From Treponema sp. UBA937 (lineage in GTDB: Bacteria > Spirochaetota > Spirochaetia > Treponematales > Breznakiellaceae): a DNA stretch of 20,951 nucleotides. Under the pieces are notes generated by a model. That model worked only from the letters and a program-made list of their open reading frames with translations. It was not told where the DNA came from and made no database searches. Both the position numbers and the translations under genes were made by a program. Within the stretch, counting starts at the first letter, position 1. Each line of letters begins with the position of its first letter. Shown here piece after piece: positions 6,878 through 20,139 of the stretch. The stretch is taken from contig DBDH01000102.1 of assembly GCA_002293455.1 (NCBI GenBank), forward strand, positions 26,418 to 47,368, read 5' to 3'.

Positions 6878-7782
6878 ACATCCGTGTAATAGAAATTCCG
6901 CTCGACTTCGGCGCAAGCCGCCGCGGCAGTGACATGGGGCCGTCCGCGATGCGGCTTGCGGGACTAAAACAAGAACTCAATAATCTGGGACATGAAAGTG
7001 AAGAACTCTTTCCCGGTATTCCTGTTCCGTCCCAGGAATTTCTGGAAATGGGTGATGAAAAAGCAAAGTATCTTGTGCCGATTGCCGAAGTTTGCGGAAA
7101 GCTCGCGAAAGAAGTTGAACGATGCATAGATGAAAAACTGTTTCCGCTCGTTCTCGGCGGCGATCATTCAATAGCGATAGGAACCCTTTCCGGGCTTGGT
7201 TCCGCATATAAAAAAAGAAACAAACGCTGGGGAACGCTCTGGGTGGATGCTCACGGCGATTTTAACACACCTGAAAGTACTTTGTCGGGAAACATTCACG
7301 GCATGTCTTTGGCCGCGCCCTGCGGTTACGGCCGTAAAGAATTGACAGCACTCCACGGTGATTTCCGGAAGCTGGATCCCAAGAATACGGCAATTGTCGG
7401 TGTCCGCGACCTTGACCCAAAAGAAAAAATCACTATGAAGGAAGCGGGGCTTTCGGTTTTTACGATGACCGATGTTGACCGTTTGGGAATCGCTGAAACA
7501 GCCAAACAGATCGTGCAATTTTTTAAAGATCGTGTGGATGTTCTTCATGTCAGTGTGGACATGGACGCCATGGACCCCATGACAGCGCCCGGCGTGGGAA
7601 TTCCGCTCTCAGGCGGATTTTCCTACCGCGAAGTGCTTTTCCTTGCGGAAACCCTTGCGGCATCCTCCCTGATAGGTTCAATCGAAATTGTAGAAGTAAA
7701 TCCGGTGCTCGACGTGAAAAACCAAACCGCCCGGATGGCAGTAGAGATAATAAGCAGGCTTTTAGGCGGAACTATTTATTAG
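6874..7782 (+). CDS. rocF: arginase (ureohydrolase family)
   Basis: Motifs GGDHSIAIG, VWVDAHGDFNTPESTLSGNIHGMSLA, SVDMDAMDPMTAPGVG, GGFSYRE. Collinear with Bacillus arginase from memory. Its start overlaps the gltX stop (ATGA). Confidence 0.85.
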   Translation: MNIRVIEIPLDFGASRRGSDMGPSAMRLAGLKQELNNLGHESEELFPGIPVPSQEFLEMGDEKAKYLVPIAEVCGKLAKEVERCIDEKLFPLVLGGDHSIAIGTLSGLGSAYKKRNKRWGTLWVDAHGDFNTPESTLSGNIHGMSLAAPCGYGRKELTALHGDFRKLDPKNTAIVGVRDLDPKEKITMKEAGLSVFTMTDVDRLGIAETAKQIVQFFKDRVDVLHVSVDMDAMDPMTAPGVGIPLSGGFSYREVLFLAETLAASSLIGSIEIVEVNPVLDVKNQTARMAVEIISRLLGGTIY

Positions 7783-8686
7783 GCTCCGCAGGAGGATACG
7801 CGTTAAACAGAGCCATCATTCCCGGCTTATTAAAAAGGGCGGCGTATTTCCTTGCGCTGGCTCCCAGAGCATCCGGATCATCAGCATTGGCGCCGGCTTT
7901 TAAAAGTTCGGCGGCGATTGTTTCATCATTCAGCCCGACCGCAATAACCAGGGCCGATTGACCGTCTTTGCTCCTTATGTTTACATCCACGCCAGCGGAA
8001 ATCAAATCCGTTACAATATCCAAAGACCTTCCCATACAGGCGTCAATCAAGGCCGAACTCCCCCTGTCATGCGACTGCTGGTTGATCTGGGCTCCGCCTT
8101 CAAGAAGAATCTTAACCATCAGCCTGTTACCCGTCCGGGCCGCCAGGTTCAAAAGCGGAACACCATTTGTATCCATTGCGTCCGGCAAAAAACCCGCTTT
8201 CAAAAACAATTCGGCAGCCCAGGTATTTTCTTCCCGAATACACCGCTCAAAAGATTCTTCGTTATAAGGAATTCCTATCGCTAAAAGATCATTTCTCGCC
8301 TGTTTTTGTACATCCTTGGCAATCCATACATGGAAATCTCCATTCAAAAAGACTTCCAAATCTTTTATGCTGTCACAAATCTTGATTTCATCGGAGCGGC
8401 TCGTATGAATATACGAAGGTTTGCGCCCAATTATAATAACAGGATTTTTAATACCAAAAGCATAGCCTAAACAAAGGCTTTCCCATGCTGTATCGGGATT
8501 AATAGCATTAATTATGACAAAAAGAGAAAATTCAGCAAAAATGTCTAAAAAATCATCTTTTTTCTTCCAATTTGGTCCAAATGACCTGGCACGAACATAA
8601 AGCGATCTTTCTGTAAGCAAACGCACCACTGCTTGAAGATGTTCCGATTCTTTTGCGTCATGAAGCACTAATATTTTCAACACCAT
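7772..8686 (-). CDS. TIR-like N-terminal domain fused to ankyrin repeats
   Basis: N-terminal ~130 aa parallel bacterial TIR domains from memory: LKILVLHDAKESEHLQAVVRLL vs YDLFISHASEDKEFVRPLAEAL; EFSLFVIINAINPDTAWESLCLGYAF vs SRFGVVVLSPNF..NWPQYELNGLV; NPVIIIG vs HKVILPI. C-terminal half (about 7816-8180) has 3-4 ankyrin repeats (G-xPLL-xAA-xG-x-x-V-x-LL-xGA). Lower GC by eye. Convergent 11-nt overlap with the arginase 3-prime end. Confidence 0.55.
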   Translation of the reverse strand: MVLKILVLHDAKESEHLQAVVRLLTERSLYVRARSFGPNWKKKDDFLDIFAEFSLFVIINAINPDTAWESLCLGYAFGIKNPVIIIGRKPSYIHTSRSDEIKICDSIKDLEVFLNGDFHVWIAKDVQKQARNDLLAIGIPYNEESFERCIREENTWAAELFLKAGFLPDAMDTNGVPLLNLAARTGNRLMVKILLEGGAQINQQSHDRGSSALIDACMGRSLDIVTDLISAGVDVNIRSKDGQSALVIAVGLNDETIAAELLKAGANADDPDALGASARKYAALFNKPGMMALFNAYPPAEPNK

Positions 8687-8790
8687 TCCCCTTTTTTAAT
8701 TTTCGGAAGAATAGAACATTTCGTTGACCAAAAAATGCAATATATAGAGCTCTTGCAAACTTTCGGAAGTTTTTGCAATTTTCCTGGGAT

Positions 8791-8824
8791 AAAAAAAGCT
8801 GTTTGTAAAGTATTTACAAACAGC
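8791..8824 (-). terminator. Rho-independent terminator for tRNA-Phe (perfect 12-bp stem, 3-nt loop, then T7 on the minus strand)
   Basis: GCTGTTTGTAAA-gta-TTTACAAACAGC at 8798-8824. The plus-strand A7 at 8791-8797 gives a U-tract immediately 3-prime of the hairpin on the minus strand. Confidence 0.7.
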
Positions 8825-8831
8825 CTTTGGA

Positions 8832-8904
8832 TGCCGCCAAAGGGAATTGAACCCTTGACACAAGGATTTTCAGTCCTTTGCTCTACCGACTGAGCTACAG
8901 CGGC
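8832..8904 (-). tRNA. tRNA-Phe (anticodon GAA)
   Basis: Minus strand reads GCCGCTG-TA-GCTC-AGTCGGTA-GAGC-A-AAGGA-CTGAAAA-TCCTT-GTGTC-AAGGG-TTCAATT-CCCTT-TGGCGGC-A. All arms pair; the acceptor has two G-U pairs. Confidence 0.85.
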
Positions 8905-8995: not shown

Positions 8996-10255
8996 CTACA
9001 TTTTTAACTTATCCAATGTCAAGTTTTTGAATTTTTTTATCGATTCCGCTCCCGGATCCAAAACAAGAGCGCTTTCGCAGTCAGACAAAGCCTTGGGATA
9101 ATCATTAAGATGAAAATACGCCTGCCCTCTTCTGAACAAGCAATAAGATTGATAAGGATTAATCTCTAAAGAATACGTAAAATCATCGATAGCCTTCACA
9201 TAATCCTGCAGCACTGAATAAACAATTCCCCGGTAATACGGAGCTCTGTAAGCCTTGGGGTCGAATTCCAAAACCCTGGAAAAATCATCGATGGCTTCCT
9301 GATATTTTGACTGAGCAAAAAAAGCCATTCCGCGGTGTTTATAAATAAGGGCCTTAATCACATCCGGCGGATTCAACTCAAATATTTTGCTGTATATTTT
9401 TACCGCCATGCCGAATTCGTTTTTATTGTGCGCGTACAGAGCATTCAGAAGCATATCATCAATGGAAGCGCCTGACGCGGGATAATCCAGACTTGAAGGA
9501 TCGATAAACGTATCATCTTCACGATACTTATCGTCTTGGAGAGCTGCTTTCTCATCAAAAAAGATAATCTCATCCGAAAAGTTATCAACTTTATGATAAA
9601 AAGTACCTCTTCGTTTATCCAACTGCCGGTTTAATCGGCGCTGATAGTCCCGAATTTCCTGAAATATGGTATCCGCCAATGAAAGAGACGCGTTTACCGC
9701 CGCCAGTTTTCGTTTTAAAGGAGTATCAAAAGGATTAAAATCAGCTTTGTACACCAATTCATGTTCAACTTCCGCCCACGCGTCCTGCAAAATCGTTCTA
9801 ATTTGAACTTCCGCGGCGTCCGTACCAAAATCTCCATATTTTTCCAAAATATGCGGAGGGATTTTTATGATGACATGCGTTGATTCATAGCCGAACTCTT
9901 TAAAAGAATAGTCCGATCCTTTGCGTTCTATCTCGATGATCTCAAAATTTTTTTTCAGGATTTCTTCAACATGACGCAGATCTTCCATGAAGGGACAAAT
10001 AACCCGAATTCCCATAAGATCGGCAACAAAAGGCTGTTCATCCTTGGAAGGAGAATTCTTTAACAGTCTGATATATTTTTTAAAAAAACTATTAAAATCC
10101 TTTACGCGGCTCTTAATGGAAGGAAGCGAAGGAAGCTCTTTGAGCAACAATGCAATGTCTTCGTGAAGTTCTTTTACGACGAGTATTCTTACATCACTAT
10201 GTTTATAAAATTTTTCTTGCAGCCGGCCTTTGTCAGGTAATTCTCCATTTTGCAT
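8996..10255 (-). CDS. RelA/SpoT-family small alarmone synthetase (SAS) domain fused to C-terminal TPR repeats
   Basis: Synthetase core LMGIRVICPF...YESTHVIIKIP...AEVQIRTILQDAWAEVEHELVYK matches the RelQ/RelP-type EIQIRT..W..EH..YK signature; no HD hydrolase domain. The C-terminal ~150 aa have 3-4 TPR units (AIDDF...LE.DP.....YYRG). Start taken at the ATG at 10255 (AAGGG 8 nt upstream); the ORF track's GTG at 10264 is an alternative. AT-rich by eye. Confidence 0.65.
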   Translation of the reverse strand: MQNGELPDKGRLQEKFYKHSDVRILVVKELHEDIALLLKELPSLPSIKSRVKDFNSFFKKYIRLLKNSPSKDEQPFVADLMGIRVICPFMEDLRHVEEILKKNFEIIEIERKGSDYSFKEFGYESTHVIIKIPPHILEKYGDFGTDAAEVQIRTILQDAWAEVEHELVYKADFNPFDTPLKRKLAAVNASLSLADTIFQEIRDYQRRLNRQLDKRRGTFYHKVDNFSDEIIFFDEKAALQDDKYREDDTFIDPSSLDYPASGASIDDMLLNALYAHNKNEFGMAVKIYSKIFELNPPDVIKALIYKHRGMAFFAQSKYQEAIDDFSRVLEFDPKAYRAPYYRGIVYSVLQDYVKAIDDFTYSLEINPYQSYCLFRRGQAYFHLNDYPKALSDCESALVLDPGAESIKKFKNLTLDKLKM

Positions 10256-10276
10256 CAATAACACCCTTCAGATGAA

Positions 10277-13179: not shown

Positions 13180-14766
13180 TTATCTCCGCGGCAGCATATC
13201 CAAAAAATATACCGCTCCCTGATAACCGCCGCGGATAAGGCTTTGCCAGAATTCCCTGCCAAGAAAGCTTTCATTTTGAAGATCGGCATTTTTGGGAAAT
13301 TTCCATGAAATTTCCTCCGCGATTTCCAAGGTATAGCCGCTAAGTTTTCTTAGCGCGGAGAAAACCTGAGCGATATTTCGGCCCATGTAATCGAGCGGGT
13401 TCCTCTGTGTAAATTCCGGAAAAGGATAAACCATTAAGTTTTTTTCTTTGTTTGACAAAAAATTACACAGAGGAAGATTATTCAGATGCTTGCGCGTATT
13501 TTCATCAAGAGGAAACGCGTTCGGAGGAAAATCTGTCCAAGTTTGCAGGAATTGTTCTGTTTCCTCGTTCGGCGCTTCCAAACGGATAAGGATGCTTTGA
13601 GCCGCCGTTTCCGCGGTGTGGACAGCTTCTTCACGGCCTGGAGCGGCTGTTATGATGTTTCCGCACTTACTGACATTATTTTCCGGAAACGCAACATGGC
13701 TTCCCTTTTCTATCCGTAAAAAAACATCTTTGACACGCGGCATTTTTTCCGCGTCATCTATTCCTTGAATCGATTGTACGATTCCCGGAATGGAAATAAA
13801 GGCCCGCTCCGCGCTGGTCCATTGTTTTGACGGTTCCAGGCAGTCCGGCTTTTTCCCCAGACACACCATAATCGCGGCCTTTGCGGGTTCTACGCCGGAT
13901 GCATACGGATACGTCCATCCCGACATGTATCCGCCTGAAAGCCGTGCCGCGATTTCCCCGATCATGGGGCCGCGCTTTGTCAATTTTATGTCGCCTTTGG
14001 CGGCTCCGTTCTGGATTCCCAAAACGTTTACACCCTGTGTAAAAACCTCGATAATCGCTTTTTGCTTGTCTTCATCAATATTCGTGGGCATGGTGTGGCC
14101 CATTTCAATAAAACAGGGCGGGAAAAAGATGTGCCGGTCCGCCAGGCCGCAAATCGTAATGTTTCCTTCGTAAACGACGGCATCTACCGAAAATTCGGGG
14201 CCGTCCATATATTCTTCGATGATCGCGCGTCCGGTCCGGGAAAATTTCAGGGCATCACGCGCCGCGCCGATCAAATCTTCGGAAGAAGAAACTTTCCGGC
14301 ATCCTCTGGAACCCATGTTGTCCACGGGCTTAACCACCGCGGGAAAATCGAAAGGGAGGATAAAACCATCACCGGGAACGGCATCAATTATCGTAAATTC
14401 CGGAGACGGAATTCCGGCTTTTTTAAAACGGCCGCGCATCCGCTGTTTGTCGGAAGCGTCAAGAGCGCTTTCGTAGGAGATTCCCGGAAGCCCAAGTTTT
14501 TCGGCCGTCCAGGCGACAGAAGCGGAAAAATCGGTTCCCGCGGTCATGATTCCGCTTAACCCGCCGTCATCTTTCAGGGAGCGGGCAAAATGCTCAATGG
14601 CTTGTATATCTTTTAAATCGATGCGTTCAAAATGATCCGCCAAATGTACGCAGGGAGCTTTTGGATCGGCGTCCAGTACAAAGGTTTCCAGGTCCATGTT
14701 TTTCGCAATCGTAATAGCGGGGCCCTGCATGACCCCCGCTCCAAGGATGATTATCCGTTCTTTCAT
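13180..14766 (-). CDS. ATP-grasp domain enzyme (carboxylate-amine ligase type) with ~200-aa C-terminal extension of unknown function
   Basis: N-terminal Rossmann pre-ATP-grasp module (RIIILGAGVMQGP). Central ATP-grasp features (AVVKPVDNMGSRGCRKV, IIEEYMDGPEFSVDAVV, GEIAARLSGGY). The C-terminal ~200 aa (from about FISIPGI) have no recognisable motifs. Confidence 0.55.
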   Translation of the reverse strand: MKERIIILGAGVMQGPAITIAKNMDLETFVLDADPKAPCVHLADHFERIDLKDIQAIEHFARSLKDDGGLSGIMTAGTDFSASVAWTAEKLGLPGISYESALDASDKQRMRGRFKKAGIPSPEFTIIDAVPGDGFILPFDFPAVVKPVDNMGSRGCRKVSSSEDLIGAARDALKFSRTGRAIIEEYMDGPEFSVDAVVYEGNITICGLADRHIFFPPCFIEMGHTMPTNIDEDKQKAIIEVFTQGVNVLGIQNGAAKGDIKLTKRGPMIGEIAARLSGGYMSGWTYPYASGVEPAKAAIMVCLGKKPDCLEPSKQWTSAERAFISIPGIVQSIQGIDDAEKMPRVKDVFLRIEKGSHVAFPENNVSKCGNIITAAPGREEAVHTAETAAQSILIRLEAPNEETEQFLQTWTDFPPNAFPLDENTRKHLNNLPLCNFLSNKEKNLMVYPFPEFTQRNPLDYMGRNIAQVFSALRKLSGYTLEIAEEISWKFPKNADLQNESFLGREFWQSLIRGGYQGAVYFLDMLPRR

Positions 14767-14845
14767 GTAAACCCCAAAATCAATTAACAGTGATCAATGA
14801 GCATTGAGCAAATGACAAATAGAACATCTTACTTTTGTTATTTGT

Positions 14846-16690
14846 TCATGTCTCTTTCACCGCGTATGCTTCAAACGTATCTCCCAGGCCGAAACATCTG
14901 CTGAGCCGGTTTACGGCATTATACATCATTCCTTCGTTTTTGTGTATAAAGGGAAAACGTTCGGGATGATGTCCGGTAACGGCTATTTTTTCTACATCAA
15001 GATGATACGGTTTCAGCGCATTCATTGTCTTCCGCGGATTCCAAACGCTCCAGTGATCCGCGGGACTTTTATCGAAAAAATCATTTCTGTTCCGAAGGGC
15101 TGAAATCCCCGTTCCCGACGGCGTTGAAAAAGCAAAAACCCCACCGGGCTTTAACCATGCCGCTATTTTTTTCAAAGCCGCCCTTGTGTCTTCAAAATGT
15201 TCGATAACATACCACAGGGAAATAACATCGAAGCCGTCTTTTAATACATCTTTTGGAAGATCAATGTCCGGGAAAAAACCCTGAAAGGCCGGGATTCCAA
15301 GCGTTTCAGTTACATAGTGTACGGCGTCTTGGGATGGATCGATTCCGAAGGCATCGAAGCCTTCGTCTTTGGCGGCCAGGAGAAAGGGACCATAAGCACA
15401 GCCAATGTCCAAAAGCCGGAACGGTTCGGCAGATGCTGTATGACGCAATATTTCTATAATATGTAACATTCTGTTTTTTGCCATGTTAAGCAGATGTAGA
15501 AAATCCTCCAGATATGTTTTTCCGTACTGTTTTTTATAATCGCCGAAAAAATAATCTTCCGTGTATTGTACGGAAGAAGGATAAAGCCTTAACATGTATT
15601 CCATAGAACAGTAATTGCAGCGCTTGTATGTCCGGTCATAAAAGCGCGCAGCAATAGGATGATTCAACGATGACGCGCCGCACACCGGACATGTCCGGGA
15701 AATGTTAACATCAAAAGCTCTTATTATGTCAATGAAAGATTGACGCGGAACTGTGTCCAGTTTTTGTTCGCAACATATTTTTTTTGACGCGGCAATAATC
15801 TTTTCGAGAAATTTTTTCTTGAAATGAGAAAAGTTTTTTTCCGCATTCCGCAATGTTTTTAAAGCGCGATTCTTTGTTCCTAATGTTACAAAACCGGTTC
15901 CTCTGGCAAGCTGTTCGTGGTACCTTGTAGGCGACGTGATAAGAACCGGAACGCCCGCGTGAAGCGCTTCAAAGGCGGTGATTCCAAAGTGAGTAAGCAC
16001 AAGATCGTATTGATACAGCGTTTCTCTTAAACCGGAAAAAGGCCGCACAATATTGATATTCGGCGGCAAAGTTTTTTCATCCGAAACAGGATTTTTACGT
16101 ACAACATCGATAATGATATTTTCTGTTGAAGCAAGTTCCATTGATAACAAGAGACTCATGTCGGAGGCGTCTTCCATGCCGAAGACAGAAAGAATCTTAA
16201 AAGGATTTATTTCAGAATATTGAAAAAATTGTGCGCGGCGCTTCTTCGGAAGGGAAAGCAAGGATGGGCCGGAGATATTTGCTTTGCTCCGCCCGGAAGG
16301 CCCCGGAAGAATATCGATAAGGAAATCAAACGCATCTCTTTTTGAGCCGCCTTCATCGACGGCTATTACTGGAGCAATGTTTGACCAGAAAACGTAATCC
16401 GCTTCACTGCTCTGAAAATTATCCAGGATAATGAACGACCATTTTTCTTTTTCCGGTTCAGATGAAACAATCCATTCAGGATCGATTGTAGACAAAAAAG
16501 GAAATTGCCGCGCCGCAGGATCGCTAAGGATTTCATCACGAATAAAAATATATGCTTCAATTCCCGCCTGCCGTAATTCCCCGGCATACGTTACAGAGCG
16601 GACAAGATGCCCTCCCCCTTTTCCTTTTTCAACGCGGGGAACAAAGAGGATTTTTCCAACAGTGTTTGTTTTTTCTTTTTTTAATTTCAT
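14846..16690 (-). CDS. Fusion: PseG/SpsG-like UDP-sugar hydrolase (GT-B-like) N-domain plus Zn-ribbon plus class I SAM-dependent methyltransferase C-domain
   Basis: N-terminus GKILFVPRVEKGKGGGHLVRSVTYAGEL resembles the PseG G-x-G-H-x-x-R motif. Mid-protein CPVCG...CNYCS Zn-ribbon. The C-terminus has methyltransferase motif I LLDIGCAYGPF and a post-I acidic residue (GIDPS). Its start is 1 nt after the upstream cytidylyltransferase stop. Confidence 0.55.
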   Translation of the reverse strand: MKLKKEKTNTVGKILFVPRVEKGKGGGHLVRSVTYAGELRQAGIEAYIFIRDEILSDPAARQFPFLSTIDPEWIVSSEPEKEKWSFIILDNFQSSEADYVFWSNIAPVIAVDEGGSKRDAFDFLIDILPGPSGRSKANISGPSLLSLPKKRRAQFFQYSEINPFKILSVFGMEDASDMSLLLSMELASTENIIIDVVRKNPVSDEKTLPPNINIVRPFSGLRETLYQYDLVLTHFGITAFEALHAGVPVLITSPTRYHEQLARGTGFVTLGTKNRALKTLRNAEKNFSHFKKKFLEKIIAASKKICCEQKLDTVPRQSFIDIIRAFDVNISRTCPVCGASSLNHPIAARFYDRTYKRCNYCSMEYMLRLYPSSVQYTEDYFFGDYKKQYGKTYLEDFLHLLNMAKNRMLHIIEILRHTASAEPFRLLDIGCAYGPFLLAAKDEGFDAFGIDPSQDAVHYVTETLGIPAFQGFFPDIDLPKDVLKDGFDVISLWYVIEHFEDTRAALKKIAAWLKPGGVFAFSTPSGTGISALRNRNDFFDKSPADHWSVWNPRKTMNALKPYHLDVEKIAVTGHHPERFPFIHKNEGMMYNAVNRLSRCFGLGDTFEAYAVKET

Positions 16691-16691
16691 A

Positions 16692-17369
16692 TTACGAAAA
16701 AAGTTCCTTGTGACATTTAATAATCATTTCACCGAAAGCGGGATGTATCACGCCGGTATTCAAAGCATCATACAGACGCTGGGCTTTAGTATAATCTTCC
16801 ATGGTATCAACGGTAATCCGTACTTCGGGATGCTGCCATTTCAAAGGAGGCAAAGGCCTGTGAAGGGAAAAGGTTTCCGGATGATGATACAAATATGGAC
16901 AGACATGTTCCCGTTCCGCCGGAAGGGACGCTTCCTTTTCGGCTTTGAGAAGTGCTTCGGCTTTAACCGATTCAATTCCGGCGCCGTGAGGAATACAGGC
17001 ATATCCGGCATAATCCGCGTGAAGAACGCTTGCTTCTTCATGCAGAAGATTCGCGGCATCGGCAAAGACAAAAGGATTGTCTCCTGTAGCGCGGATAATG
17101 CGCTCAGGCTTATAGACGCGGATAACATCACAGTAACGCGCAAGAACATCGTGTTTGGAACCGGCCGCGATTTCAAATCCGCCTTCTTTGGCAAGAGGTT
17201 CAAACGTTTTGTAACTGTCTTCCGGGCAGGCAAGCACAAAAATATCGGCGTGAATGTTTTTCAAGGCTTCCATAACGCGGAAAATGAGCGGTTTTCCGCC
17301 TAAGGGAAGCATCGTTTTTTGGGGAAGCCTGGAAGAATCAAGCCTTGCCTGGAGAATAAGGGCCGTCAT
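16692..17369 (-). CDS. acylneuraminate/nonulosonate cytidylyltransferase (SpsF/PseF-like, CTP_transf_3 family)
   Basis: LILQARLDSSRLPQKTMLPLGGKPLI matches the SpsF/NeuA N-terminal nucleotide-binding motif, plus GDNPFV. Start placed at the second ATG (17369) for an ATGA overlap with the upstream gene's TGA; the ORF track starts at 17387. Confidence 0.7.
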   Translation of the reverse strand: MTALILQARLDSSRLPQKTMLPLGGKPLIFRVMEALKNIHADIFVLACPEDSYKTFEPLAKEGGFEIAAGSKHDVLARYCDVIRVYKPERIIRATGDNPFVFADAANLLHEEASVLHADYAGYACIPHGAGIESVKAEALLKAEKEASLPAEREHVCPYLYHHPETFSLHRPLPPLKWQHPEVRITVDTMEDYTKAQRLYDALNTGVIHPAFGEMIIKCHKELFS

Positions 17370-18359
17370 AGAGCGGGTTTTTCCCATCGTTCTATAAGTT
17401 TGCGGGCATCACACTTAAAGCGGTACTTGTTGATTTCTACCCATTTCCGGGCGGCGAAAAAATCTTCCCAGTCTTCAAAAGGATTATCGCGAAACCGTAA
17501 CATATAAGAAGGGCAGCGCCGCAGGGGAATATGCGCGCTGTCTCCCCGGTACACGGGGGCAAGATTCTTAAGGTAAAAACGTTTGTAACTTTCTTCTACC
17601 GTTGAATCTTCCGATGGAATATCGCCGTCATAGGACATTCTCACAAGCTGAGTGCCCGCGATTTCCTCGCCCCAAAGCCAAGAACGAAATCCAAAATCCG
17701 CAAACTGCCAATGGGAATTGGAAAGCGTCTTGTCAAAACCGCCAAGCCGGATAAAACGTTCCCTGTCATAAATGCCGATACCGTCAAAAGGATAGAGCGT
17801 CATCTCCCCTTCCGTGTTTAGCGCGGAAGGAACTGTTTTTACGGAATCTTTAAAATACGCGGGCGACATTATGGTAGGAAGCGTTTCAAAATGACTGTTC
17901 TGAATAACAGGAACCGTACAAAGTCTTTTATATACTGATGTATCATCTCCCGATTCTGACGGCTTTTCGTTCAGCATCCGTTTGGCCATTTTCGCGGCTC
18001 CGCCGCCGTGAAGAATCCTGATATCATTCCATAACACAAAAAATAAAGAACCGGTAAGTTCGGACACCGCGAGGTTAACCTGTTCCCCTACAGAAACAGC
18101 TTGTTTCAAAAGAATAAATTTTACCGACGGAAAACGGATGGAAAGGTCTTCAACATCGTAGCGTTCCTCCGGTCCTTCCAGCGAAATAATGTAATCGAAG
18201 CCGTTTTTCTCCAATTCCTGAAAAAGCGTACGCCGCGGATAACGCCCGCCGCGGTTTAGGAGAACAGCCGACAATCCGCTGTTCCCGGCTCTTTGAATTC
18301 CGCCCACCACCGTATAAGAAGGCAGCGAATGATTAAAAGTTGTAGGTATAGTATTCATC
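17366..18359 (-). CDS. putative glycosyltransferase, GT-A (GT2-like) fold; start uncertain (ORF track extends to 18457)
   Basis: C-terminal GT2-like motif block (GIYDRERFIRLGGFDKTL...ADFGFRSWLWG). The 5-prime end would overlap the conserved SPASM-cysteine region of the upstream gene if started at 18457, so the ATG at 18359 (27-nt overlap) is favoured. No clear RBS at any candidate start. Confidence 0.4.
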
Positions 18360-19925
18360 GCATACCGCACATAAGGGCGGATATTTTTTATCCGCATGGG
18401 CAAGGTATATTTCCATACCCGTTTCCCAAATTGATTCAAGTGAATCACGAAAGACATTTCCTAAAACCGGACTGCCCGGAGCAGTCAATACTTCTTTGCA
18501 CAGAGGAACAGTTCCGTCAATCAAAATAGATACATCCCTCATACAATGCCAGCAAGGATTTCTGTTGATGGGAGATAAATCCGATGCTTGCAGTTTTTCC
18601 CGCGTTCCGCAAAAATCATCATATTTTTGCACGATGATGTTTACGCCGCGTTCCTTCCATCGGCGGTAAAACTGTTCGAGATCATCTTCATAGCCTTTTA
18701 CGCGGACAGCCTGAACGTAAGTATCCTTGGGAAAAAGCTGAAAGAGTTTTTCCGCGGTCTGACGCGCTTCCGTAAAACCGGGGCCGCGGATTTCTTTGTA
18801 ACGGGAAGGATTGTCTGAATCCAAGGATACAATCCACGAAAGCGGCGCTTCTCCGTTCAGCCTGGCTCCCGCTTTTTTTGCCATGAAAGCAATCTGTTCC
18901 AATTCCGCTTCAATCCAGCCGATGCCGGAAGTTTCGATAATCAAAGATAAAGCAGGACGCGCCAATACCGCCTGAATCAATTCCAGCTTTTGAGGGTGAA
19001 GCGCGGTTTCCCCCCAAAGGGAAAGATCGATTACGGCATCTCCCGAAAAGGCAATAACGCGGTCAAGAAGCGTTTCAAATTGATTAACATCCATAAAATC
19101 CCGGCGTTCAAGGATTGATGTTCCATCATGTTTTCCAAAATTAGGATAAGGGCAGATGGAGCATTCCTGCGGGCAGGGGCCGGAAACCTGAACGGCATAA
19201 AAAGCCGGCAAAGTCCGCAAAGCGGGAACATTGTTTTCGATTATTTCCGCCGCGTTTTCTGTACCGGACAATCCGGCATCGATAAGCCGTTTTAAGAGCA
19301 GCATGTTTCTTTTTGAATCGGCAGTCAGGCTCAAGCGGTATCCCCGTAAATCCACCGGGGAAATTTCAGTTTCAATATCGAAAGCATTGATGTCCTTTTG
19401 CAAGACCGAAAAGATGCAGTCGCGTTCGACAGGGCCGTCCGCATCGCCAAGAATTTTTGAAAGAATTCCGGCGGTTCCGCGGCAAAGTATTTCCGGCGCC
19501 ATCCCGTAAGGCCAGCCGTCGGCATACGAATATTCGGCAGCGTATTGCGTGTGCCGCTTGTATATTGCCAGAGCCATGTCAGGATCAAGCAAAGGAGCGT
19601 CAGCCCAGGCAAAAAAAGTATGATCGAACTGTTCCCCTTCTTTGGAAATGCATTCCAGAAGCGCCCGTTTTGTCCAGGAATCCTTACTGATTACATCGAT
19701 TTGCGGAGAAATGGATTTACAAGGCCCATCATCTTGTAATAAGAGAAGACACTTTGAAACATCGGGAAACGACCTCGCCCTTTCCAAAGCCTTTTCCAGG
19801 GCATTTTTCCCGCCGAATACCGGTTCCGCCGCAAAATGATTTAACTGTCCGCCATAAAGCACCACAAGATTATTCATACTTTCACAGTATCGGCAATTAG
19901 CAAGGAGCAATTGAGGCTGTTTCAT
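18333..19925 (-). CDS. Fusion: cytidylyltransferase-like (CTP_transf_3-like, probably degenerate) N-domain plus radical SAM domain with C-terminal SPASM/twitch cysteines
   Basis: CPQECSICPY gives a CxxxCxxC radical-SAM cluster (about 19150-19195). The C-terminus CWHCMRD...PLCKE...CAVCDEYY is SPASM-like. The N-terminal ~230 aa parallel SpsF-type cytidylyltransferases (LVVLYGGQLNHFAAEPVFGGKNAL; ADAPLLDPDMALAI) but lack the R-x-x-S-x-R-L-P-x-K signature. The ORF-track start is TTG at 19949; the first ATG at 19925 has GAGGAA about 10 nt upstream. Confidence 0.6.
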   Translation of the reverse strand: MKQPQLLLANCRYCESMNNLVVLYGGQLNHFAAEPVFGGKNALEKALERARSFPDVSKCLLLLQDDGPCKSISPQIDVISKDSWTKRALLECISKEGEQFDHTFFAWADAPLLDPDMALAIYKRHTQYAAEYSYADGWPYGMAPEILCRGTAGILSKILGDADGPVERDCIFSVLQKDINAFDIETEISPVDLRGYRLSLTADSKRNMLLLKRLIDAGLSGTENAAEIIENNVPALRTLPAFYAVQVSGPCPQECSICPYPNFGKHDGTSILERRDFMDVNQFETLLDRVIAFSGDAVIDLSLWGETALHPQKLELIQAVLARPALSLIIETSGIGWIEAELEQIAFMAKKAGARLNGEAPLSWIVSLDSDNPSRYKEIRGPGFTEARQTAEKLFQLFPKDTYVQAVRVKGYEDDLEQFYRRWKERGVNIIVQKYDDFCGTREKLQASDLSPINRNPCWHCMRDVSILIDGTVPLCKEVLTAPGSPVLGNVFRDSLESIWETGMEIYLAHADKKYPPLCAVCDEYYTYNF

Positions 19926-20139
19926 CCTCTGTGTTCCTCTGTGTAACAATTTCTTTTGCCGTGATCAATTGGCAATCCTCTATTGAACAAAACATATCCG
20001 GCTGGTAAGATAAGGAATGACATTTTTCCTACATTTTGTAATATGAAGGTCATCGGTTTGTGTTCTCTGCATCTCAGCCGTATTCAGCTTCTAATACATT
20101 AAAGTCAAGTATTTTTTGTCAATTAACATGAGAGGTTAT

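Follow-up and report, generated by a model that had tools for sequence, protein, structure and literature searches.

A clade-specific spirochete ankyrin-repeat protein with a putatively degenerate TIR/NDT-like domain, encoded beside cobB-type sirtuin genes in related genomes

Introduction

In Thoeris, a TIR protein (ThsB) is paired with ThsA, a SIR2-SLOG or Macro-TM protein. Folds of the TIR and nucleoside deoxyribosyltransferase (NDT) type bind nucleotides at the C-terminal edge of their strands, and modules that connect cAMP with lysine acylation exist, such as the mycobacterial Pat, regulated by cyclic nucleoside monophosphates (cNMPs), together with CobB. To our knowledge, descriptions of the latter include no ankyrin or TIR-like component. 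Here we analyse an ankyrin-repeat gene on the minus strand of a 20,951-nucleotide stretch of the Treponema sp. UBA937 genome (contig DBDH01000102.1, positions 26,418 to 47,368), referred to below as the window. We propose, with roughly even confidence, that its product is a non-enzymatic scaffold or adaptor, specific to a spirochete clade and ancestrally tied to sirtuin, and possibly cyclic-nucleotide, signalling.

Results

We searched 1.84 billion cluster representatives exhaustively with HMMER, using the N-terminal domain (N-domain) as query, and recovered five true relatives. Four share the architecture of about 300 residues and one is a 158-residue fragment. The family accounts for five clusters at 50% identity in this set, and the gene is not core. 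Scanning 185,579 species genomes with patterns taken from a four-sequence alignment identified 14 family loci, all in spirochetes (metagenome-assembled genomes, MAGs, of Treponemataceae and Spirochaetaceae), among them Treponema sp. TIM-1 and the cultured Breznakiella homolactica RmG30. Counting the window protein, the family comprises at least 19 members, and many of the MAG names are typical of termite-gut series. A copy identical to the window gene is present in an independent assembly. Neither word-indexed homology searches (queried with the N-domain by itself, a profile of 6 sequences and one of 19) nor a species-genome scan with the single protein gave matches, and a metagenome-contig scan returned a single match, confined to ankyrin repeats. 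No relatives were found in viral contigs, phage genomes or plasmids. The searches thereby define a small uncharacterised family whose N-domain is absent from Pfam.

The C-terminal part certainly consists of ankyrin repeats. Pfam Ank_2 matches the window protein with E=1.2e-17, the repeats follow one another in tandem at 33 residues, and the full-length AlphaFold2 (AF2) model (pLDDT 88.8, pTM 0.77) places five helix pairs there. Residues D207, R208, K240, D241, Q243 and G251 are invariant (18 of 18 sequences in the family alignment), and L252 is found in 16 of the 18. All but the last two are hairpin-tip residues, and we take the seven positions to correspond to the target-binding groove of designed ankyrin repeat proteins. 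The linker is similarly constrained, with L134 and G138 invariant and L135, P140 and S145 nearly so. In the 19-member alignment the linker and ankyrin part has a mean pairwise identity of 58% and dozens of invariant residues, whereas the N-domain has a mean of 24%. Matches to PADLOC and NCBIfam models fall on the repeats alone; the PADLOC model PDC-M72A (E 2.3e-17) covers residues 161-282. The comparison with defence models suggested in an earlier note on this DNA therefore touched only the ankyrin part and yielded nothing for the N-domain.

Searches of Pfam, PADLOC, NCBIfam and the PDB sequences returned nothing for residues 1-145 of the window protein, with E values up to 10 allowed. The AF2 model of the N-domain, built on six sequences (pLDDT 80, pTM 0.77), is a flavodoxin-like alpha/beta sandwich with a central parallel sheet, in the order strand-helix-strand-helix-strand-helix-strand-strand-helix, and leads into a long helix. 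There is no signal peptide; the N-terminus forms strand 1 of the modelled domain. In a fold search with this model the NDT superfamily took 5 of the top 12 places and likeness to receivers was seen at the fold level only. Foldseek against the PDB gave weak generic matches only, to PurE, PTS IIB and type II dehydroquinase (E ~1e-3, TM-score ~0.45). The fold class predicted by the model is compatible with TIR and does not single TIR out.

Sequence profiles gave TIR and NDT matches at low scores. A profile of the 19 members had 13 matches in the PDB, all sub-threshold, comprising four TIR chains, one NDT and zero receiver domains among others: the bacterial TIR-TPR protein 9m0n (E 0.097), TIRAP (E 0.7), TRAM (E 0.8 and 1.2) and the NDT 6qai (E 0.18). 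We checked the matched fragments as TIR_2 (E 1.5e-9) and Nuc_deoxyrib_tr; the TIR and NDT matches are collinear and agree in what they indicate. When members were scanned one by one, TIR_2 was the only recurrent Pfam match, in two of the 19: L011 (E 0.0037, 18.2 bits, residues 7-67 on profile positions 5-67 of 122) and L014 (E 0.029, 15.3 bits), the gathering score being 28. The window protein itself is matched by none of TIR, TIR_2 or ThsB_TIR. The 19 members likewise have no PF00072 match at E≤10 and no conserved Asp, Thr or Lys at receiver positions, and thus carry neither the profile nor the phospho-acceptor set of a CheY-like receiver. In our reading the N-domain belongs, distantly and in degenerate form, to the TIR/NDT fold group, from which its sequence probably descends. 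Of the TIR-ankyrin architecture put forward earlier, the ankyrin half stands; the TIR half is weakened to a fitting fold class and a faint, sub-threshold similarity to TIR_2 and NDT that appears via relatives only.

The earlier note correctly recorded a WESL motif and, as the glutamate stands directly after the tryptophan, called NADase competence unclear, a question that the family alignment can answer. W68 is kept in 17 of the 19 members and E69 in two, the window protein and its closest relative. The HMMER alignment puts the NDT nucleophile Glu ('ELGYA') at Trp+4, which is also the position of the glutamate in the TIR WxxxE motif. In that column (72) the 19 members read C,C,V,V,C,A,S,A,V,A,F,F,F,F,A,L,F,L,C, never Asp or Glu. 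The domain therefore lacks both the WxxxE glutamate of TIR NADases and the 'E-L-G-Y-A' glutamate of NDTs, and it has no PF05014 match. The other residues that stand out are G74 (18/19), G78 (16/19) and L114 (18/19), and none of the invariant residues in positions 1-117 is polar. Since Trp+4 is never acidic and no other polar residue is invariant, cleavage of NAD by the N-domain is predicted to be unlikely.

The family is linked to a sirtuin gene in relatives. A Sir2-family gene directly follows the family gene in 11 of 18 informative loci, whose outer contexts differ. Seven of the junctions range from a 14-nt overlap ('ATGxxGCAAAATAA') to a gap of +23 nt; for the ambiguous sirtuin starts of L010, L014 and L018, homology suggests a place within ~20 nt of the stop. 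The neighbour is 248-286 aa long, matches PF02146 (E 1e-44 to 1e-50) and matches NCBIfam models of CobB-type deacylases (E ~1e-70, under the equivalog cut-offs). Its GAGxS and QNID motifs, catalytic His and four Zn-binding Cys are intact, and judged by these features it is a canonical CobB-type deacylase rather than a SLOG-fused defence SIR2. Upstream, a class III nucleotide cyclase (Guanylate_cyc) directly precedes the family gene in 5 of the 13 loci with upstream sequence, and a cNMP-binding protein (transporter) does so in one further locus. In Breznakiella homolactica RmG30 the family gene stands between the cyclase and murG.

Several features of these neighbours are recorded here for their own sake. 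The upstream cyclases (L002, L004, L007, L009, L012) have an N-terminal region of ~300 residues without significant Pfam match and a single C-terminal TPR motif, seen as sub-threshold Pfam matches in the three scanned (L007, L009, L012); the RelA/SpoT protein upstream of the window gene likewise ends in TPR repeats. A conserved protein of ~280 aa is encoded after cobB in five loci (L008:8197-9021, L009:4190-5062, L010:11231-12088, L011:2232-3089 and L019:11295-12113). It has a signal peptide, a beta-rich body and a hydrophobic C-terminal end (…FG[LVFI]P[LF]) with Phe or Leu at or near the terminus, has no Pfam or NCBIfam match, and looks like an uncharacterised spirochete outer-membrane protein (OMP). 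At the spot occupied by cobB in other loci, L007 (11143-12571) encodes a lipoprotein-like protein with a tRNA_anti-like OB-fold and a secreted protein with a 'NADase translocation' F5/8 type C (discoidin-like) domain.

Conserved gene order shows that the family is inherited vertically in one spirochete clade. L007, whose family protein is 62% identical to that of the window, has the order ATP-grasp–amidase–Germane–FlaA–RelA/SpoT-TPR–tRNA-Phe–cyclase–gene, which is the upstream side of the window gene for gene, the cyclase excepted. Downstream of the gene, L008, L010 and L011 have cobB, the OMP-like gene, a convergent arginase and gltX, which is the downstream side of the window apart from two inserted genes (cobB and the OMP-like gene). 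L013 has the gene, then cobB, then gltX; arginase and the OMP-like gene were not detected there. The tRNA-Phe lies upstream of the gene, or of the cyclase and gene, in L004, L006, L007 and L012 (as tRNA-Phe–cyclase–gene in L004, L007 and L012), and the tRNA adjacency is therefore ancestral. Compared with these orders, the arrangements of the window and L006 are deletions of the cyclase and the cobB pair.

Base composition gives a similar picture. The AT-richer segment described earlier exists in the N-terminal third of the gene (GC 0.363, against 0.493 in the rest of the gene and 0.467 in the window), but the whole-gene GC of 0.439 is inside the range of the window genes (0.394-0.524). A low-GC N-terminal half also occurs in L002 and L007, and the GC of orthologues tracks that of the host locus from 0.47 to 0.65. 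The earlier note was right about the open reading frame (ORF) of 304 aa and the tRNA-Phe beside it on the same strand. It called the gene an orphan standing alone, and it is one of at least 19 members in conserved synteny. The proposal of a horizontally acquired defence or effector gene is contradicted by the shared flanks, the ancestral tRNA, the host-tracking GC and the lack of phage or plasmid relatives in the sets searched. Conservation as a core gene with native GC had been named as grounds for abandoning that proposal; synteny (FlaA, RelA/SpoT-TPR and tRNA-Phe upstream, arginase and gltX downstream) and host-tracking GC largely agree with this, although the gene is not core. The locus shows neither the polymorphism and foreign composition nor the mobility genes of a genomic island at a tRNA. 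We rejected a tRNA-targeted island on the conserved synteny.

The surroundings are those of an ordinary spirochete chromosome. Pfam scans of the window ORFs identified PFK, gltX, arginase, a RelA/SpoT-TPR protein, FlaA, an amidase and an ATP-grasp ligase, and no integrase, transposase or type IV secretion system (T4SS) genes. Coordinates of the features in and around the gene are collected in Table 1. Candidate start codons stand in tandem at ATG 8686, GTG 8683 and TTG 8680 (window 8680-8686, minus strand). TTG 8680 falls in the column of the Met with which orthologues start ('MKIL…'), and a GGGG run at 8688-8691 lies 7 nt upstream of it, a spacing that suits TTG better than the annotated start. 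The real start may be TTG 8680, giving a product of 302 aa, with the annotated ATG two codons too early.

The hairpin and U7 tract that follow the tRNA-Phe look like an intrinsic terminator parting the tRNA from the ankyrin gene. The gene therefore probably has its own promoter, in the following ~100 nt. A consensus terminator scan around the gene did not pick up this hairpin, and a promoter consensus scan of the same region found promoter matches no more often than the shuffled expectation.

Table 1. Position of the ankyrin gene, its parts and adjacent features in the window
Feature	Coordinates	Strand	Basis or remark
Complete gene, 304 aa from ATG 8686	7772..8686	-	ORF list, sequence, family alignment
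N-terminal flavodoxin-like domain, residues 1-117	8336..8686	-	Predicted remote, degenerate TIR/NDT-like
Codons W68-E69-S70-L71-C72	8471..8485	-	Sequence, family alignment, HMMER alignment to NDT 6qai
Long connecting helix (residues 118-136) and conserved 'LLxxGIPxNEES' turn into repeats	8261..8335	-	AF2 secondary structure, family alignment
Five ankyrin repeats, residues 143-296	7799..8260	-	Pfam, AF2 model
11-bp overlap of the convergent 3' ends of gene and arginase	7772..7782		ORF list; cobB and OMP-like gene occupy this spot in related genomes
16-bp perfect hairpin and U7, terminator-like, directly after tRNA-Phe	8791..8828	-	Folding dG -17.7 kcal/mol, z -7.4
tRNA-Phe(GAA)	8832..8904	-	ARAGORN; 145 nt upstream of gene, same strand

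Two other parts of the window deserve mention. The RelA/SpoT-TPR protein (8996-10264, minus strand, 422 aa) is an unusual fusion of a RelA/SpoT-type small alarmone synthetase domain with C-terminal TPR repeats, and it is kept beside flaA in L007 with 73% identity. Downstream of flaA (13180-19949, minus strand) a run of genes encodes an ATP-grasp protein resembling L-amino-acid ligases, a methyltransferase of 614 aa, a cytidylyltransferase, an uncharacterised protein of 363 aa and a SPASM-domain protein; this run could be a cluster for glycan or peptide modification.

Discussion

We suggest the following model for the proposed scaffold or adaptor. The protein would be cytoplasmic, and the invariant concave groove of its five-repeat ankyrin domain would bind a conserved partner protein. 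The long helix would join the repeats to a fast-evolving N-domain, a degenerate TIR/NDT relative without the catalytic glutamate, which is most likely a self-association or regulatory module and not an NAD-cleaving enzyme. The ancestral cluster may have been tRNA-Phe, class III nucleotide cyclase, family gene and cobB, encoding an NAD-dependent protein deacylase, with the gene probably translationally coupled to cobB in most relatives. Given this coupling, sirtuin-dependent protein deacylation (CobB or its substrates) would be the likeliest partner or pathway, possibly under cyclic-nucleotide control. In the window genome both neighbours would have been lost from the locus, leaving the gene alone with its own promoter.

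Several observations weigh against this model. The link to the sirtuin is one of gene order in relatives alone, and cobB is not adjacent in the window or in 6 other loci; the window lineage may use the protein differently or not at all. L006 (3640-4451), the nearest copy with the gene–arginase junction of the window, has lost ~29 residues (one repeat) and carries a frameshift. Its N-domain is 51% and its ankyrin part 74% identical to the window protein. Either the copy is a pseudogene or the MAG was misassembled here. If genuine, the lesion could indicate that the gene is dispensable once unlinked. As for the N-domain, each TIR and NDT sequence match is non-significant on its own, a receiver-like origin is still compatible with the fold search on the model, residue 72 was assigned its pocket position by sequence alignment and not by superposition, and poor conservation of the domain is no proof against ligand binding.

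A more specific proposal, which we regard as doubtful, is that the family is a new group of CobB partners. In that case the dead TIR/NDT-like module might sense an NAD-derived or cyclic nucleotide, or oligomerise, and the ankyrin groove might recruit or gate the deacylase or its substrates. A role of the N-domain as a non-catalytic ligand sensor may also be considered on its own, and appears to us similarly unlikely. Here a TIR/NDT/SLOG-type pocket for NAD+, nicotinamide, O-acyl-ADP-ribose or a cyclic nucleotide would gate the interaction of the ankyrin repeats with CobB or its substrates. Nucleotide binding is established for the strand edge of such folds, 11 loci place the family gene in close linkage with an NAD-consuming sirtuin and 5 with a cyclase, and the conserved residues W68, G74 and G78 lie at the N-terminal end of helix 3, the region of such pockets. 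However, the domain offers no invariant polar or charged residue to a ligand, its mean pairwise identity is low, and helix packing explains G74xxxG78 equally well.

Alternatively, the N-domain may be a CheY-like pseudo-receiver with an ankyrin output, working in nearby cyclase or two-component circuitry. This has a small probability in our estimate. Histidine kinases and response regulators do occur in several loci, and an acidic residue follows strand 1 in 13 of the 19 members, but a conserved Asp is missing from the end of strand 3, and conserved Thr/Ser and Lys residues are likewise absent. Receiver chains are abundant in the PDB and none was matched, PF00072 was absent from the members, and the sequence matches that did appear are TIR and NDT.

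We think it about as improbable that the window gene has no function and is a remnant of a locus that lost its flanking cyclase and cobB. Such a history would account for the missing partner genes, for the deleted and frameshifted L006 copy with the same arginase junction, and for the drift of the N-domain to 36% GC. Yet the ORF is intact and retains 48 of the 52 strongly conserved ankyrin columns, all invariant hairpin-tip residues and W68, G74 and G78; the identical copy in an independent assembly also argues against decay, and the L006 lesion is possibly a MAG assembly error.

The reading as an active TIR NADase or signal generator fused to ankyrin repeats, acquired horizontally beside a tRNA as an antiphage or effector module, is essentially excluded: it could draw on the faint TIR_2 matches of two relatives, the AT-rich N-terminal part, the adjacent tRNA-Phe and the PDC-M72A match, the last on the ankyrin residues only, but the column of the catalytic Glu is never acidic and Glu69 is confined to two members, no ThsB, TIR or other defence model matches the N-domain, the neighbours are housekeeping genes whose synteny, tRNA included, is kept across species, orthologue GC follows the host, relatives are absent from the viral contigs, phages and plasmids searched, and there is no signal peptide. 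The case advises caution, as fold-level resemblance and tRNA adjacency alone are insufficient to call a TIR-like gene 'defence'.

The proposed scaffold or adaptor may be set beside several described systems. With bacterial TIR domains (TIR_2 PF13676; ThsB_TIR PF08937) its N-domain shares the flavodoxin-like fold and a collinear, sub-threshold similarity that begins at strand A, ends where helix C starts and takes in a Ser/Pro-Trp motif after strand C. Unlike them, the window protein has no significant profile match, the second half of the domain is unmatched, every family member has C/V/A/S/F/L in place of the Glu at W+4, and there is no defence context. The NDT superfamily (PF05014; 6evs, 6qai) offers a parallel in the HMMER alignment between the family motif 'CLGYAFGIKNPV' and the NDT motif 'ELGYAAALGKVL', but the family is without the nucleophile Glu, the E value is only 0.18, and the context is not one of nucleoside metabolism.

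Ankyrin effectors of Legionella and Coxiella and other bacterial ankyrin proteins have the same canonical repeats, and NCBIfam models of T4SS Ank proteins match the repeat region. The scores of the window protein are, however, at most 46 bits against cut-offs of 500-1400 (the best is 45.9 bits against 600), its N-domain is unrelated, and neither a secretion signal nor a T4SS context is present here. We rejected a secreted (Dot/Icm-type) Ank effector on the scores, which are far under the cut-offs, and on the lack of a signal peptide.

Thoeris resembles the loci of family relatives in that a TIR-like protein stands beside a SIR2-family protein. In these relatives, however, the SIR2 protein is a short, canonical deacylase of the CobB kind, has a Zn ribbon but no SLOG domain and is not of the defence type, and the TIR-like domain has no catalytic Glu. 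The locus is chromosomal, syntenic and housekeeping, PADLOC gave no Thoeris match, and the window gene has arginase and tRNA-Phe as neighbours instead of a SIR2 gene. A Thoeris-like system was rejected on the wrong type of SIR2 and the missing Glu.

The surroundings of the family gene resemble the cAMP/lysine-acylation modules in having a cyclase and a sirtuin nearby, joined in two loci by an AMP-forming acyl-CoA synthetase. They differ in that no GNAT acetyltransferase was seen in these neighbourhoods and in that the link here is known from genomic context alone. Most members share a tight operon with cobB, which suggests that the protein is an accessory factor, built on ankyrin repeats, of a bacterial sirtuin; no such factor is described in the literature searched, and our search for ankyrin–CobB or TIR–ankyrin–SIR2 links returned nothing relevant. 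Since these organisms have not been cultured or are difficult to grow, and the copy in the window is without the partner genes, the practical impact is modest. If the CobB-partner reading is true, the family would connect cyclase signals with protein deacylation in spirochetes of termite guts and would form a housekeeping counterpart of the TIR–SIR2 pairing of Thoeris.

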